Shown one piece after another: positions 21,001 through 33,000 of a DNA stretch of 64,000 bases. Position numbers: made by a program. This stretch comes from an uncultured bacterium (lineage in GTDB: Bacteria > Babelota > Babeliae > Babelales > Vermiphilaceae), in the NCBI GenBank assembly GCA_963702025.1, contig OY969699.1:160001-224000 (forward strand). The letters are read 5' to 3'. Every line of letters starts with the position of its first letter. The first letter of the stretch is position 1.

Positions 21001-24000
21001 CGCTCACTACCCAGGTTCCGGCATATGCCATATTGTGGCGATCAGCAAGCTGTTTTTTTTCTACTATGAGGTCAGCGCTCTTAAGAGCCGGCTCCGATTC
21101 TCCGGTTAATGATGATTCATCAATGCGCAACTCATACGCCTCTAAAATTCGCACATCGGCAGGCACCTGTTGTCCTTCTTGCAAAAGTATAATGTCGCCC
21201 GGCAGCAGATCTTTTGCCGCAATCAGGATTCTTTTGCCATTCCTGATAACCACACACTCTTGCTCAAAAAAATGTTTAAGGTTCACTAAAATATTCTGCG
21301 TTCTACTTTCCTGAATGGTGCCAATAAAACTATTAAATAATAAAATGCCGGCAATAATATAGGCATCGCGTGGATCATCGCCGAGAAAAAAAATAAGTAA
21401 CGCCGCGATGAGCAATAAATAAATCAATGGGCTTGCAAATTGAGAGAAAAAAATCCAAATCCAGTTTTGCCTTTTTTGATCAGGCACTGTGTTGTTTCCA
21501 AATTTTTTCTTTCGCGCAGCAATCTCTTTTGACGACAAACCATGATAAATATTGCTGGAATATTTATCAATTACTTCTTCTTGGCTCAGCTGATAAGGCT
21601 TTTTCATACTAATTTTTTATACTTTCTATTACTTTCGTGGCCATGATATAAAAATGCAAAATACATCTCAATGAATCACTAACCGTTACTAATTGAACTG
21701 CATAATGGTATGAAATTTATTGAAGAACATCAATATAGAGAGATAGGACGCGGGAGAAAATGTCCATTTTTTAGTTCACCCCACTCCCCTTCAGAGTCTT
21801 CCATCGCATGTCGCCTCCCGCGTACATAAATTACAGAGTCTCAATTACTTTACGCCAATAGAAGATATTTTTGCAAAGAGTTTAAAAATTTGATGAGATA
21901 TGAAGCAAACAACGGCTATATTGATGATTTTTGCGAAGTAGAATAATTGATAGTAAAGAAAACATCGTTGAAATTTTTCGATAAAATTAATAATACTCAA
22001 GGTGATATTATTAAATTATTTTCCAAAAGAAAGAATTGGTATGAAAAAAATTATCATGTTACTGTCACTTACAATAATTACTACCTCTTTTATGCATGCC
22101 ATTTGTAAAAAACCGGATAAAGGCCATGTTGACCCAAATATTGTCCACTGCCCATATACCCAAGAAGATATAAATCGTTGTTATTGCAAAAAAGGAACTT
22201 GCTATACTGACTTTCAAAAAAGAAATGAATGTTTTTTTTGCAGCTGCCCTAAAAGCGAACATACCACCAAAGAAATCCCAAAAAAACAAAAGAAAAGAAG
22301 ACGCATATATTAATATTTTATAATGCAATGCAGTCCGTCTACGCTTTCACTTCGTTGGTATCAATTACTAAAGAAGCTTCTGCTTCGCCGGACAGCCTAC
22401 GCTTAGTTCTACCAATATCAAATTATATCTATATCAATCCTTTAAAAAAATGGCCGTGCCAGCCGAAGCCTTGGCGTAGGCTGGAGGCGATGGGAGTTGA
22501 ACCCATGTCCGTTCTGTATCCTACTAAAAGCCACTACATGCTTAGCCTCTGTTTATACTCTTCTATCATCCCAGAGACAGGGTTTAATAAAAGAGGCCCG
22601 GTGCGTGATACCTCTCAAGCTACTCACTATGCAAAGCCTTACTTGAGTGTTCTATCTTGTTGATACGAGTTAGCGCAACTGATAGACACGTTATGCTAAC
22701 AAGCGCTCTTTGCTTACGCTTGAGCGGCAACTACAGGAGTTGCATTTCTTGTTTTGACCAATTGTTTAACGAGCACTTAGTCAACGCTCGGCATGCTCTT
22801 TTGGTATTCAACAGCTCGTCGAAACCAAATACGCCCCCAAAATTTCAAAGAATCGCTATTAAATTATACTATAACAGTAATATTTCCCGTTTGTCAAAAT
22901 TGCGACTAAGAAGGACCCTTTTTTGTGCAAAAGATTTATTAAATCAATGTTATTTTGCTTTTTTTAAATTTGTGATTGCTGTTTTTACAAAAATTCACGT
23001 AATATGATAATAAGATCATCAAATTTCATTAAAAAGTGATGGCATGTTTAACAGAATTTTAAAATTACCTCTTAATGGCACCAGCAGTATTTTCTTATTT
23101 GGCCCCCGAGGAACCGGCAAAACATCATGGATCAAAGCCCATATGCCTGATGCCCTTTATCTTGACCTTCTGGATTTTTCATTATACAGTTCACTTTCAG
23201 CAGCTCCCGATCGGTTAGAAACCCTTATTCCAAAAGGGTTTGATGGCTGGATTGTTCTTGATGAAGTGCAACGGGTGCCTGAACTACTCAACGAGGTTCA
23301 TCGCTTAATTGAAAGCAAAAAACTCCGATTTTTACTCACCGGCTCAAGTGCCCGCAGTCTCAAACGAAAAGGGGTGAACCTTCTTGCGGGTCGAGCATTA
23401 CGATATACCATGCATCCGTTAACGGTACAAGAAATTGGTTCTCATTTTGATTTGGCACATGCGGTGCAATTTGGCATGTTACCAACCGCCGTTACCCATG
23501 AAGATCCCAAAAAATATTTAGAAAGCTATGTGCAAACCTATTTGCGCGAAGAGGTGTTGCAAGAGGGCATTTTGCGCAATGTGGGAACTTTTGCACGATT
23601 TTTAGAAATAGCCAGTTTTTCTCAGGGTAATTTAGTTAATTATTCAGAAATTGGGCGCGAGCTGGGACTTAATCGTCTGAGCGTTGCGAACAATTTTGAA
23701 ATACTTGATGACCTCTTGCTTTCCATCAGAATCGATCCATTCACGCAGCGCGCCAAACGCAAAATGGTTGCTCATCAAAAATTTTATTTCTTTGATGCCG
23801 GGGTTTATAGGGCAATACGCCCCATGGGCCCTCTTGACTCGCCCGAAGAATCTGACGGCGCTGCGCTCGAAACACTCTTTTTGCAGTCGCTTTGCGCGAT
23901 TAATGATTATTATGAGCTGGGATACACTATCTATTTTTGGCGCACCGCAAGCGGCACAGAAGTGGATTTTATTTTGTATGGGCCGCGAGGCATTCATGCT

Positions 24001-30000: not shown

Positions 30001-33000
30001 GCATAGTGTTCTTACCTGAACCAAGTAATAGAAATGATATTAATTTATTGTATGTTAAAGATTTCTTAACCAATACCGTTGGCGCCACCGATATCACATT
30101 GCCCCATGGGAAAAAAATAACTATTTATCTGAAGAATGGAAAAGAAGCAATCTTATTAAATAAACCCACAAAAACTGTTTTCCAAACAGTGTACCCGGAA
30201 ACCGGCAAAGTTAAATTTAAAGTAAATCAGCGCGAGAGTGATTACTTGCAAAGCTTTATAACTACCGGAGGCGTTCCCTTTAGAACCTTGCCTTCTTTAT
30301 GTAAACAGATGAATTTATTGCCAACTAATTTTATTACCGATTTTAGTTTCGGCTACCTTGTGGATTTGGATATAAACAGCTATGAACCGGTTCAAAGTAG
30401 AACATTGCTACAAATGAACAAAGAAAATCATATCCAATTAAAACAGGCGCTCCTTGATGCCTATTTTATCATTGGCTTGCACAAAGGCATCAATAATTCA
30501 AATTATTTTGACAAAGTATTTACCCATTTTGGCAGTTCGTGCCATTCATTAGAACAAGTTAGCTTAAGCTCTCAACTCAATGAGACATGCAATGAGATGA
30601 TAAACAACTTTTTAAATTCCAACTCAGTTACCACGATGGAACCGGAACTCTTCTTTACCTATTACAAACCTTCATGGGCGGACAAGAGTTTTTATCACCA
30701 TATCAAAGAGGTGTATGATACGATTCTGGACAGCGTGAATGCGCAGATAAAAGAAAATAAGAGGCTTATTGAAGAGTGGCACACCAAAAATAAAAATGAC
30801 CTCACCACCATCGCTACCAGCGAAGATAAAGCATTGGCAGAACAATTAAAGGAAAAATTAGCAAATGAGTTTAAGCCATTGAGAGAAAAATGTGCCCACG
30901 CAATTGAGACTATTTTTAACAATTGGAAATTCCAATTTAAAACATCAAAAAATGAAACTGCAAATCTTTTTGAAACAAACGTTGTAATACCATGGGTGTT
31001 TAAAAAGGCTGAGGGAATTAGTACCGGCTTTAAAAATGCACTAATGGAAATACCGACAATAAACAAAGATGGGGGAAAAAATAAATCTTCTTCTGCTGAA
31101 TCCATATATTCTCATAATTTAAACATAGTCTCGTTATTTAACGACTTAATGAAGCATAGTCTTTTGAGTTATTGTAATTTATTTTTAAACAAAATAGGCG
31201 TAACAGATATACAAAACAAACTAAGTAATGCCTCTTTTTATTACAATCCCTACCAATTAACAAGTGGATTTTACGTCCCAAAAACTAAAGAATTAAAAAT
31301 CAATTTAGCATTTGTCTCAGTCGCAGATTATTTTGAGATGTTGATTAGAATATTAGAAAACGATGCTACCGGGATCAGGTTAAATAAAACCTATAATGAG
31401 TTATTTGCAAATAATGCCGGCAATGAGGCAACGTTGACCCATGAGCTTGAGCATGCACGGCGCGAGGATAGCCACAATGGCCCCCACGGCCCTGGATTGG
31501 ATGCTGAGGGAAATATGTCTAATTTTAGACAATGCGCTAATAGTTTTAGTAGAAAAGCCCAAGAGGCCGGGTTACTGCAAGACTGGATAGCGGATATTCG
31601 GAATTTCTACAATAGTAAAGTTGATGCCCGTAACCGCGATTCTGAAAAGGAAAGTATGAAAAAATACGCTTTAAGCAACGTGAGAAGAGTTGAAGCTGAA
31701 AATAAAATATCTCTCATGCAAGAATTGGGATATTTATTCGGGGCTAAGTTGTAAAATGCTTTTTTCGAACCTAGTTTTGAATATTAAACCCGCATGGTTC
31801 GATACGCTCGCTATGCTCGCACTCACCCGAGCGGTTTTAGTATTATTTTTATTAATCCTTTAAAGAACTGGCTGCGCCAGGCGTCCTTCGAGACCCGGCC
31901 TACGCCAAGGCTTCGGCGGGCATGGCGCAAGCTCCTCAGCTTGTCCGCCATAGCTCCAAAGGAGCGACGGCTGGAGATGACCGGAAGGACGCGTTTACTC
32001 CCGAGCCCCCGCCGAGGGGTTGCCGAGCCGGAAGGCCCGGATAAGCGAAGACTGGTGGAGGCGATGGGAGTCGAACCCATGTCCGCATAATATCAAACTT
32101 CAAGCACTACATGCTTAGTCTGAGCATCTACGATTTGACCAGCTTCAAAGACACAGCGCAGCCAAAAAGACAGCTTAGTATACTAGTCATGCCACAAAAC
32201 TATACAATCTTGCATGGTAGTTCCATCTTTTATAATACGTATTAGCCAAACTGACAGACACGTCCAGCTAATAAGGCATCAGCTAATTAAGCAAAAACAG
32301 GTCCGCTTTGAGCGAAATCATTAAAGCTAAAAAGTGATGTTGGAATTGAACTATAGTTCGCTTCCACTTTTGCATCTTCTGCATTTCTTATTTTGACCAA
32401 TTGTTTAACGAGCACTTAGCCAACGCTCGGCATGCTCTCAAAGCTATCAATAACACGTCGAAACCAAATACGCCCCCAGTAATTTCAAAGAAAAGATTAT
32501 AGTAAAACAGTAAGTAATTATTGATTATAAGTCAAATTTTTTAAAAAAGAGAGCACTCCTCCTTTTTTTCTTTTCTTTTAACCTTTGCTTCTTGAGCAAG
32601 AAGAGTTTTGCAATCCCAAATTCTTACTCCTTTTTCGGTATACGAACCAAATGCCAACTCTTGACCATTAGGGCTAAATGTTAACGAGCCAGCTTCGTGG
32701 CTTGCATTCTTATTGCTCGTGCTCGCCCTTATTAATTTTGCTGGCTGGTTTCCGGACAAGTCAGCAAGGAGCAAGTTTCCATCATCGATGCTCGCTGCAA
32801 AAATTGTTTGTTGATTTGGGGCAGGGTTAATGGCAAGTGCAATGGCGGATACTTTTTTCTCGGGGGCATTAGAAAGCGCCGCTGAAATCTTAGAGCCTCT
32901 TGGTGATTCCTTTTTGCCTTCTAGATTGTATACCGCTAATAATGCGGTACTACTTGCATCATAGACCTTAATATGTGACGAACAGGCAAGAAGCTTGTTA

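Follow-up and report, generated by a model that had tools for sequence, protein, structure and literature searches.

Two complete tmRNA genes with a long and a short tag, kept side by side in a genus of Vermiphilaceae

Two tmRNA genes at one locus

The genome studied here (G000, a single 1.6-Mb contig) carries two tmRNA genes of the one-piece type, each full-length and on the minus strand, and each recovered with Rfam model RF00023 and ARAGORN, the latter detecting no third tmRNA on the contig. The copies are 9,214 bp (9.2 kb) apart in the window, that is, the whole 64,000-nucleotide stretch of DNA analysed (Table 1). The locus displays two intact genes, structural selection on the short-tag copy, long co-inheritance and RNA-library contigs of both alleles, in a host with a protease content that lacks ClpXP. 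It is highly probable that both genes are functional. That they act as two working tmRNAs which share one SmpB and tag for a different strength or route of degradation is put forward tentatively, with a confidence just short of even.

The RF00023 matches span model positions 1-374 in both copies, with scores (Table 1) to be compared with a gathering score of 47. RF00023, ARAGORN and the single SmpB match thus bear out the initial annotation, which described two full-length one-piece tmRNAs on one strand and a single smpB; the latter is located 1.25 kb upstream of the long copy. With the tag excluded, the copies share 72% identity, with near-identical patches at both ends. These patches had been described before, as had the missing CCA of the short copy and the hairpin and T run behind it, and the sequences agree. 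Both copies have a 7-bp acceptor stem with G3:U70, a discriminator A and a T arm, features that are unvarying in the eight short-type genes. Moreover, both helices of pseudoknot 1, upstream of the resume codon, are 100% paired in these eight genes, and the long copy contains the same pseudoknot 1 sequence block. The hairpin behind the short copy was considered as a dedicated terminator and rejected, being a member of a repeat family that trails many tRNA genes. The TTGACT-17-TACTGT layout recurs upstream of other long copies; the site falls under the threshold of the scan, which listed weaker sites only.

Table 1. Features of the tmRNA locus, in window coordinates
Feature	Position	Strand	Evidence or remark
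Small Cys-rich protein	22002..22313	+	conserved across the genus as a marker directly downstream of the short-copy site
tRNA-tail hairpin repeat, with a terminator-like hairpin and its T run, behind short copy	22452..22481	-	
tmRNA, short-tag copy, 360 nt	22479..22838	-	Rfam 141.9 bits, full model; helices drawn and counted; discriminator A at 22482; CCA not encoded
Short-copy tag frame, ATPVVAAQA and stop	22714..22743	-	stop in helix 5 loop
Sigma-70-type promoter, short copy, TTGACA-18-TATAGT with extended -10 TG	22868..22897	-	11/12 matches; hexamers kept in L229
AAA_14 and DUF4143 ATPase, between copies	23044..24186	+	
HTH protein, between copies	24203..24505	-	HTH_37, HTH_3
HI1420-family antitoxin-like gene, between copies	24521..24829	-	PF21716, TIGR02684
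Orphan ORF, 2087 aa, between copies	25491..31754	+	no Pfam or NCBIfam match; missing in close relative L229
Stack of genome-wide tRNA-tail hairpin repeats, terminator-like hairpin last	31868..32052 (approximate)	-	repeats trail many tRNA genes; terminator-like site 31880-31868
tmRNA, long-tag (resident) copy, 425 nt	32053..32477	-	Rfam 144.9 bits, full model; ARAGORN; clade with all 8 genus genomes; CCA encoded
Long-copy tag frame, 31 codons and stop	32287..32382	-	four Phe, one Tyr; ends VFA
Candidate promoter, long copy, TTGACT-17-TACTGT	32507..32535	-	read by eye from upstream sequence
WD40 protein, between smpB and long copy	32541..33656	-	variable; missing in L229
smpB, sole genome copy	33729..34187	-	PF01668, E 5.6e-53

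Structural selection and RNA-library contigs

Across the eight short-type genes, 94.5% of the cells pair and 33 of the 96 base pairs change on both sides, a level of pairing that none of 500 shuffles reached and that compares with 37-42% in slid controls. Pseudoknots 2 and 4 of the short type are likewise paired with compensatory changes, while in pseudoknot 3 the first helix is 98% and the second, as drawn, 56% paired. Pairs were counted in the short type only; pseudoknots 2-4 of the long type rest on the Rfam alignment. On this evidence the short copy is no pseudogene, because of the compensatory changes (33/96), the strong promoter-like site and RNA-library contigs matching both alleles of one close relative. 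A second copy that is a pseudogene or an assembly artefact is accordingly largely refuted and hardly credible. Such a reading could point to the CCA, which the short copy does not encode while 37 of the 38 tRNA genes of G000 do; the genome, however, encodes a CCA-adding-type nucleotidyltransferase (with best matches below curated cut-offs), the single-copy tmRNAs of G003, G011, G030 and G059 lack an encoded CCA as well, and the pair is carried by six separate genus assemblies.

The initial annotation had held that there are no expression data, one RNA run having been uninformative. This is qualified by three runs of one study (X1, X2 and X3), available as assembled and filtered contigs without strand, ends or level. 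In X2 one contig lies inside each tmRNA gene, and the differences of these contigs from G000 are those of the two alleles linked on the metagenome contig L229 (16/16 by count and 12/12 listed; 3/3). The contigs of both close-relative alleles come from one sample, in which DNA carry-over is possible, and their depths of 22.3 and 11.4 are unable to rank the genes. X1 has fragments within the between-copy genes, though no contig over either tmRNA. The protein genes common to L229 and the window are covered by no contig in X2 and X3, a gap that fits tmRNA transcription, although a hole in filtered contigs proves nothing.

Tags and their reading frames

Both tags begin at gene position 96 and run for 31 codons in the long copy and 9 codons (ATPVVAAQA) in the short copy, in frames that are open and end in small hydrophobic residues followed by a stop. 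ARAGORN instead reads a GQNKK frame in the short copy, with its first codon within the 3' strand of pseudoknot 1; among the other seven short-type genes, the stop of this frame is reached after 7-8 codons, the last being Asn, Ser or similar. Read in the resume frame, all eight genes yield 7-9 codons with Ala last, congruent with the earlier view that the GQNKK reading is out of register.

Long tags of 30-34 codons are found in all six dual members of the genus. Of the four single-copy genomes only G004 has a comparable tag, of 33 codons, the other three having 17, 18 and 21; the statement that half of the genus holds only the long type thus stands as regards the four single-copy genomes, and fails as regards their tag in three of them. 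The 31-residue tag was also said to be unusually long, which does not apply to this group, since single-copy tags in the order reach 49 codons and many have 28-49; a long tag by itself is therefore not unusual. Within the family, 7 of 68 single-copy genes have tags of at least 25 codons, a count from which G019 was left out, its true tag being 9 codons. Among single-copy close relatives tag length is labile (10 vs 31, 11 vs 31 and 10 vs 18-20 codons), and across Babeliales it spans 1 to 54 codons. The tag sequence itself appears only weakly constrained, pooled pN/pS being 0.55 for the long tags and 0.63 for the short ones, values uncorrected for distance and based on few sites. Of 40 tags of at least 25 codons, 39 have two or more aromatic residues, a count that length alone favours and in which one row of the 40 (G019) is mis-framed.

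Ancestry and loss of the pair in the genus

Of the 8 genus genomes 4 gave two tmRNA matches, as did 8 of the 80 genomes from the family. The copies are spaced by 0.5, 3.0, 3.2 and 9.2 kb in the dual-copy genus genomes, and two metagenome contigs of the genus (L229 and L224) also carry the pair, which is thereby seen in six separate assemblies. One relative record, with an accession beginning BTUB01, has two tmRNA matches as well (L280, L281).

In four trees built without the tag, the short and long types form separate clades (support 99-100/94-99), and in an RpoB tree the dual genomes fall on both sides of the genus root. Three sister pairs match across the types, G000/L229, G001/L224 and G006/G007. 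The same branching order claimed for the two clades consequently holds for these pairs, whereas the deeper order varies between trees. From these phylogenies we read the pair as ancestral in the genus. The initial proposal, which dismissed a recent duplication or an island scar and placed both types in the genus ancestor, is upheld by the separate clades, the RpoB tree, the structure and the distance of the recombinases.

The short copy was lost at least twice, leaving no visible trace. Its absence had been ascribed to loss or bin gaps; G002, G003 and G004 are single-copy and contiguous across the locus, so that loss there is real, and G005 alone could be either. The contigs of G005 and L267 are too short to show loss. 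No remnants of the short gene were detected in G002, G003, G004, G005 or L267, the best stray nhmmer match having E 0.54. Short genes of genus members are only about 76% identical to each other, and there is no clear sign of within-genome gene conversion, with same-genome identity of 0.715-0.72 vs 0.709 across genomes.

As to where the short copy came from, its clade joins another genus (g32) in three of four trees (97/90, 96/93 and 96/79), a grouping that vanished in the fourth. AU tests reject none of long+short (p 0.185), short+g32 (0.274) and short with the short copies of G010/G012 (0.329), and the trees thus favour neither duplication nor transfer; the bootstraps of two tmRNA trees, including that of the AU tests, had not settled. 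Truncated G038 was left out of every tree. The second copies of G008 and G040, with their long branches, were omitted from the AU-test tree on, and L230, L231 and identical rows from the tree with metagenome contigs.

Unequal pairs in other lineages

Unequal pairs recur in up to four more lineages, which may not all be independent: 46+10 codons in G010, about 40+10 in G012 (a frameshifted reading), 33+13 in G127, 31+3 in L212/L231 and 11+1 in L225. In all five lineages with tandem pairs the tags are unequal, and it is invariably the copy downstream or distal to smpB that has the shorter one. Compared post hoc, long tags are in excess among pairs with p about 0.006 at the family base rate but 0.07 at the order rate. 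G008 and G040 were rejected as chromosomal pairs, their second copies lying on other contigs, on very long branches and among nuclease/Ro60 genes; we infer a phage or misbinned origin for them. The G115 pair, two closely similar 17-codon alleles on two contigs at 5% contamination, probably reflects strain mixing.

Protease content and a possible division of labour

Neither ClpX and ClpP nor HslV/proteasome was found in any of five genomes, and no ClpP above cut-off in 151 genomes of the order. All five genomes encode FtsH, Prc and two Lon proteases, and an ArfB-like rescue factor is present. The Lon paralogs of G000, Lon-1 (C1:251489-253765 in contig coordinates) and Lon-2 (C1:781626-783917), are 42% identical. 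In this host, with neither ClpX nor ClpP detected, the short tag cannot serve as a ClpXP degron, which corrects the earlier description of it as canonical in that respect. At least two Lon matches occur in 60 of 63 family genomes (those at least 90% complete), therefore the Lon pair does not track the tmRNA pair and one tag per Lon was rejected as a gene-content correlate. No other such correlate of the tmRNA pair was found.

In the division of labour that we tentatively favour, both genes would yield working tmRNAs that share one SmpB and rescue stalled ribosomes, differing in the peptide appended. Because the cell is without ClpXP, degradation of tagged proteins would have to fall to FtsH, the tail-specific protease or the two Lons. 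The extended, aromatic-containing tag added by the long copy would be of the kind that Lon reads in Mycoplasma. The short copy, expressed from a promoter of its own, would add a minimal tag ending in Ala, which may lead to weaker or differently routed degradation, such that what becomes of a rescued chain would depend on the proportion of the two RNAs. Aminoacylation, tagging, the assignment of proteases to tags and a benefit of two copies are in this scheme what we infer. Standing against a division of labour are the repeated loss of the short copy, the 33-codon tag that G004 has alone, the labile length and weak constraint of the tags, and two Lons family-wide. A wider version, rather unlikely in our estimation, holds that two-tier rescue arose repeatedly in this ClpXP-less order, two separately promoted tmRNAs sorting stalled chains: an extended tag would serve one Lon (or FtsH) and a minimal tag another protease or a near-untagged release, the latter suggested by L225 and L212, whose shorter tags have 1 and 3 codons.

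The main rival, doubtful and yet a serious possibility, is that both RNAs are interchangeable, the second copy adding capacity and being selected for structure only, while the length difference is tag drift. Repeated loss of the short copy speaks for such redundancy, as do the labile length and weak conservation of the tags, the lack of a gene-content correlate and the 68 family genomes with one full-length gene and a tag of almost any length. It is harder to reconcile with two length classes that are stable across the genus at short-gene identities of about 76%, and with tags that are unequal, and ordered alike, in all five tandem-pair lineages. Improbable, albeit with some appeal, is that lengthening made the resident tag costly or inefficient and that the short copy was retained as the efficient rescuer, with the corollary that lineages losing the latter tend to shorten the resident tag. 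The single-copy clade G002/G003/G005/L267, with tags of 17-21 codons, and the stronger promoter-like site of the short copy are in line with this; G004 with its lone long tag and the many single-copy genes of the order with 28-49 codons are not, and the short contigs of G005 and L267 weaken the corollary.

Very improbable as an account of function is a foreign short copy, brought by an island or phage and serving that element, or left as an attachment-site scar. The grouping with g32 allows a foreign origin, the locus is a hot spot of gene turnover, and extra mycobacterial tmRNAs have been traced to a phage in the accessible text of PMC9569102. However, that grouping vanished in one tree and the long+short clade is not rejected, and no integrase, including at an island end, was found among the between-copy proteins scanned in seven genomes (G000, G001, G006, G007, G010, part of G012, and G127), with the two tyrosine recombinases of G000 (PF00589) about 0.7-0.9 Mb away. 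The short gene also stays while the spacer genes differ between genomes and the spacer goes down to 0.5 kb in G001, and viral contigs gave 0 matches to the pseudoknot-1 pattern. Rather than the displaced near-identical terminal fragment of an island at ssrA, the second copy is a complete gene.

Relation to known systems

tmRNA is commonly treated as single-copy, with one tag per cell. The locus shares with the standard one-piece tmRNA (RF00023) and SmpB the tRNA-like domain with G3:U70, pseudoknot 1, resume codon, tag frame, downstream pseudoknot region and an adjoining smpB. It differs in having two diverged tandem genes per SmpB, most bacteria having one according to the available part of PMC4131195, and in its tag lengths, the most frequent being 10 aa (PMC11915505). 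The supplement of the latter gave no match for four taxon terms, though the genes may well be in the main sequence database. No publication on tags of Babeliales or on tmRNA pairs kept stably in tandem came up in our searches. The same part of PMC4131195 mentions additional (second or third) ssrA alleles, in some cases plasmid-borne, as well as island-left tmRNA fragments or pseudogenes; the fragments resemble the present case in that variable genes lie between two tmRNA-like sequences of the same strand, whereas both copies here are complete, 72% identical, equipped with their own upstream promoter-like sites and without an integrase nearby.

Extra tmRNAs with different tags were already in print, contrary to the earlier view of the literature: as far as the accessible text goes, four mycobacteria have such genes, described as sporadic horizontal gains from phage or another genus (PMC9569102). 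Both cases have in common that one genome holds a pair of tmRNA genes whose tags differ, but here the second gene occupies a constant position in the chromosome, agrees with the host tree for three sister pairs and is under structural selection, and unequal pairing recurs in the order. The mycobacterial authors ask, in that text, whether different tags change degradation, a function untested there. With tags so unlike each other, the two diverged tmRNAs under structural selection form a natural pair for this question of whether different tags give different protein fates, and may let the cell route unfinished proteins to different ends.

The closest parallel for the long tag is M. pneumoniae, which lacks ClpXP and where a 27-residue tmRNA tag is degraded by Lon (PMC8403727, in its accessible part). 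Shared are a reduced genome without ClpXP, a long tag, and Lon and FtsH as the ATP-dependent proteases found; two Lons, an ArfB-like factor and a second, short-tag tmRNA set the present host apart. By gene content and sequence, a host without ClpXP and with Lon carries an aromatic 31-codon tag, which thus resembles the extended Lon degron of Mycoplasma, with Lon recognition suggested only by analogy. Babeliales would be the second large group, after Mycoplasma, where tags evolve without ClpXP, and their wide range of tag lengths, together with two Lon paralogs, offers a ready source of candidate orthogonal degrons.

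Results and discussion

The tmRNA pair is real, with more support for function than first reported and less for uniqueness of the long tag and for novelty. Two complete tmRNA genes with one smpB, as proposed in the initial annotation, are borne out by full-model RF00023 matches to both, each scoring about three times the gathering score; the genome under study (G000, a single 1.6-Mb contig) has one smpB gene and no third tmRNA. In both genes, designated L (long tag) and S (short tag), the tag starts at gene position 96 behind an identical AAGAAAT context, yielding 31 codons with the C-terminal end VFA in L and ATPVVAAQA in S, and with the tag left out the two are 72% identical. 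The frame assigned to S by ARAGORN starts within pseudoknot 1 and is not conserved, while the resume-frame tag ends in Ala in all eight S genes, congruent with the earlier view that the ARAGORN reading is out of register.

Positions of features (along the window unless a genome or other contig is named; L plus number denotes other contigs or metagenome loci)
Feature	Position	Strand	Remark
tmRNA gene L (long tag)	32053-32477	minus	RF00023 match over whole model
tmRNA gene S (short tag)	22479-22838	minus	RF00023 match over whole model
Palindromic repeats behind L	31868-32052
Palindromic repeats behind S	22452-22481
TTGAAAT motif, L	32478-32495
TTGAAAT motif, S	22839-22856
2087-aa ORF	25491-31754
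Two antitoxin-like HTH genes	24203-24829
tRNA-Arg(CCT)	G000:C1:1144262-1144338
tmRNAs with 54-, 50- and 49-codon tags	L251:9960-10444, L248:445-917, L192:89-585
Second copies with 1- and 3-codon tags	L225:205-576, L212:9960-10317
tmRNAs with hydrophobic-stretch tags	L200:1505-1943, L202:1548-1985, L193:1470-1959, L204:1524-1956, L047:3311-3732, L040:7045-7512
Very divergent tmRNAs	L039:6873-7286, L043:6005-6409

Evidence that S is probably a living gene

The four genome copies of S share 76-94% identity, and a canonical structure with 96 pairs, drawn by hand, served to assess the S genes. Across the eight S genes 94.5% of the positions were paired and 33 of the 96 pairs were altered on both sides, a score that none of 500 shuffles reached and that both the drawing from G000 and the kinship of the rows favour; slid controls drop to about 40%. 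The double changes are distributed over helix 2, helix 5 and pseudoknots 1-4, and one helix of pseudoknot 3 is paired in 56% of cells. CCA is missing from S, as likewise from four single-copy family tmRNAs and both copies of the relative G001, and a CCA-type nucleotidyltransferase is encoded in the genome. Among the 38 tRNA genes, tRNA-Arg(CCT) is the sole one without encoded CCA.

In an RNA run labelled as a peat metatranscriptome (X2), a 260-nt contig lies within S and a 191-nt piece within L, and a run of the same sample (X3) holds a 220-nt contig in S, the differences from G000 being those of the two alleles of L229, a contig from a close relative. These are a first, weak sign that both genes are transcribed in one organism, as contigs only, from one sample and with DNA carry-over possible. 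Function of S thus has more support than initially given (structure, RNA and recurrence), the RNA part being weak, with neither gene represented in run X1 of the same study.

Distribution and origin of the pair

Both types occur in four of the eight genus genomes, the same count as before. The absence of S had been ascribed to loss or bin gaps: loss holds for G002, G003 and G004, where the locus runs unbroken between smpB and the P-type ATPase gene with neither S nor a remnant of it, while the G005 contig stops 1.3 kb past L. An RpoB tree by a quick method (63 genomes out of 68 searched among the 80 family genomes) places (G000,G006) against (G002,G005,(G001,G004)), and G007 sits beside G006 by both its L and its S tmRNA. 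On this basis, S was present in the genus ancestor and has been lost at least twice, in agreement with the claim that two tagging RNAs date from that ancestor.

With the tag removed, the S and L types each form a strong clade in four trees, as previously described; of the branching order said to be shared, the sister pairs agree and the deeper order lacks resolution. The L clade includes all eight genus genomes and joins the genus g43, near its RpoB placement, which makes L the resident gene. Three of the four trees group S with the genus g32, a grouping that the fourth does not recover; the AU test does not reject a joint L+S clade (p-AU 0.185), and S may have arisen by duplication or by transfer.

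Beyond the genus, two tmRNA matches were found in eight of 80 family genomes, including the four above; G010 (tags of 46 and 10 codons) and G012 carry a further tandem pair, again at this locus; the second copies of G008 and G040 are unrelated and on other contigs. At the order level a match is present in 141 of 151 genomes, and three of these contain two full genes: G000, G115, which probably reflects strain mixing, and G127, whose pair (33 and 13 codons) falls within its own family's clade (100/100) and is therefore of independent origin. Among 65 metagenome loci with a pseudoknot-1 pattern match, many too short for a neighbour to show, six hold pairs of four kinds (L229/L230, L224 (genus type); L212/L231; L225). 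Tandem pairs are thus rare yet recurrent, in up to five lineages, with independence firm for G127 only because the deep nodes are weak. The second copies with 1- and 3-codon tags lie beside 11- and 31-codon copies, and the 1-codon tag would add just Ala-Ala. The unrelated copies of G008 and G040 diverge strongly and lie on large contigs assigned to those bins, surrounded by PD-(D/E)XK nuclease and Ro60 genes; this DNA is probably phage or misbinned.

Some genomes are reported to have second or third ssrA alleles (PMC4131195), and four mycobacteria carry extra tmRNAs with different tags, ascribed to horizontal transfer and with function untested there (PMC9569102), which weakens the asserted lack of precedent. 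Elsewhere an assembly with two tmRNAs is ascribed to mixing (PMC4227106) and two tmRNAs are listed with no analysis (PMC12283558, PMC11767975), and for a Dependentiae isolate one tmRNA and Lon are listed (PMC6561590). The commonest tag has 10 aa and the shortest 2 aa in PMC11915505, whose accessible portion does not discuss multiple copies. A tandem long/short pair that is stable in a lineage was not described anywhere in the literature searched, mostly without subscription papers.

Tag length, proteases and possible roles

The long tag had been considered unusual; however, at least 25 codons are found in 7 of 68 single-copy family genes, and 28-49 codons make up the tag in 16 further single-copy order genes, picked because they were long or akin to G127. 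As 28 of 136 single-copy order genes also reach at least 413 nt, long tags are, on gene sequence, common in the order. Tags of 54, 50 and 49 codons are five times the usual length. Several long tags contain a 17-residue strongly hydrophobic stretch (Kyte-Doolittle 2.0-2.7) with basic residues behind it, resembling a membrane tail anchor; such tags could direct rescued chains to FtsH or into the membrane.

ClpX, ClpP and HslV/proteasome subunits were found in none of five genomes tested, and ClpP exceeded the cut-off in none of 151 order genomes (two weak matches); Babeliales thus appear to lack ClpP. The proteases present are FtsH, Prc and two full-length Lons (42% identical overall, 26% in the N-terminal part), and there is an ArfB-like factor as well; two Lons occur in 60 of 63 family genomes. 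No paper noting the missing ClpP and two Lons in Babeliales was found in the literature searched. In M. pneumoniae, Lon degrades a 27-residue tag and ClpXP is absent (PMC8403727), a setting that the long tags and protease content of this order parallel; PMC11986505 is a source on Lon degrons.

Our preferred reading, at just under an even chance, is that two working tmRNAs differ in degron strength or route, in a mix set by separate promoters. The L and S RNAs would vie for the single SmpB and for ribosomes that have stalled. The former would add an extended Lon-type degron and the latter a minimal tag that is routed less strongly or differently, and separate promoters would fix the ratio. In favour of such specialisation, each length class holds steady throughout the genus, and the two tags of a tandem pair differ in length in every case; tags of at least 25 codons occur in four of five tandem lineages (post hoc p 0.006-0.07). 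Redundancy with a drifting tag length, which remains a strong if somewhat less likely rival, is congruent with the repeated loss of S, with jumps in tag length among close single-copy relatives and with a tag pN/pS of 0.55-0.63, on few sites.

Neighbourhood of the pair

Read along transcription, the genes are rho, tsaD, DUF2062, smpB, WD40, L, the 2087-aa orphan, two small HTH/antitoxin-like genes, an AAA-DUF4143 ATPase, S, a small conserved protein, a P-type ATPase, a Skp-like gene and pth (domain names from Pfam; rho, tsaD, Skp and pth are labels that we presume from the translations). The flanks are kept across the genus and the genes between the copies vary, with a spacer of 0.5 to 9.2 kb; in L229 the copies are 2.6 kb apart, without the orphan ORF and the WD40 gene. 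No integrase was found among the between-copy proteins scanned. S has a near-consensus promoter-like site, and that of L, read by eye, is weaker.

The orphan ORF has no match in Pfam or NCBIfam, is partly GC-poor (30%) and begins with what resembles a signal peptide; two repeated motifs are, we presume, reminiscent of GHKL ATPases. The antitoxin-like HTH proteins are 100% identical in L229, and no toxin gene was seen beside them. TTGAAAT lies about 20 nt upstream of both tmRNA genes; of the 165 tmRNA leaders examined, 88 carry it directly ahead of the 5' end, and it is possibly a processing or leader element. Finally, across the genome a palindromic repeat family stands immediately behind most tRNA genes and both tmRNA genes, at their 3' end, and it likewise follows many relatives' tmRNAs; in some genes it adjoins the discriminator base without an intervening CCA.
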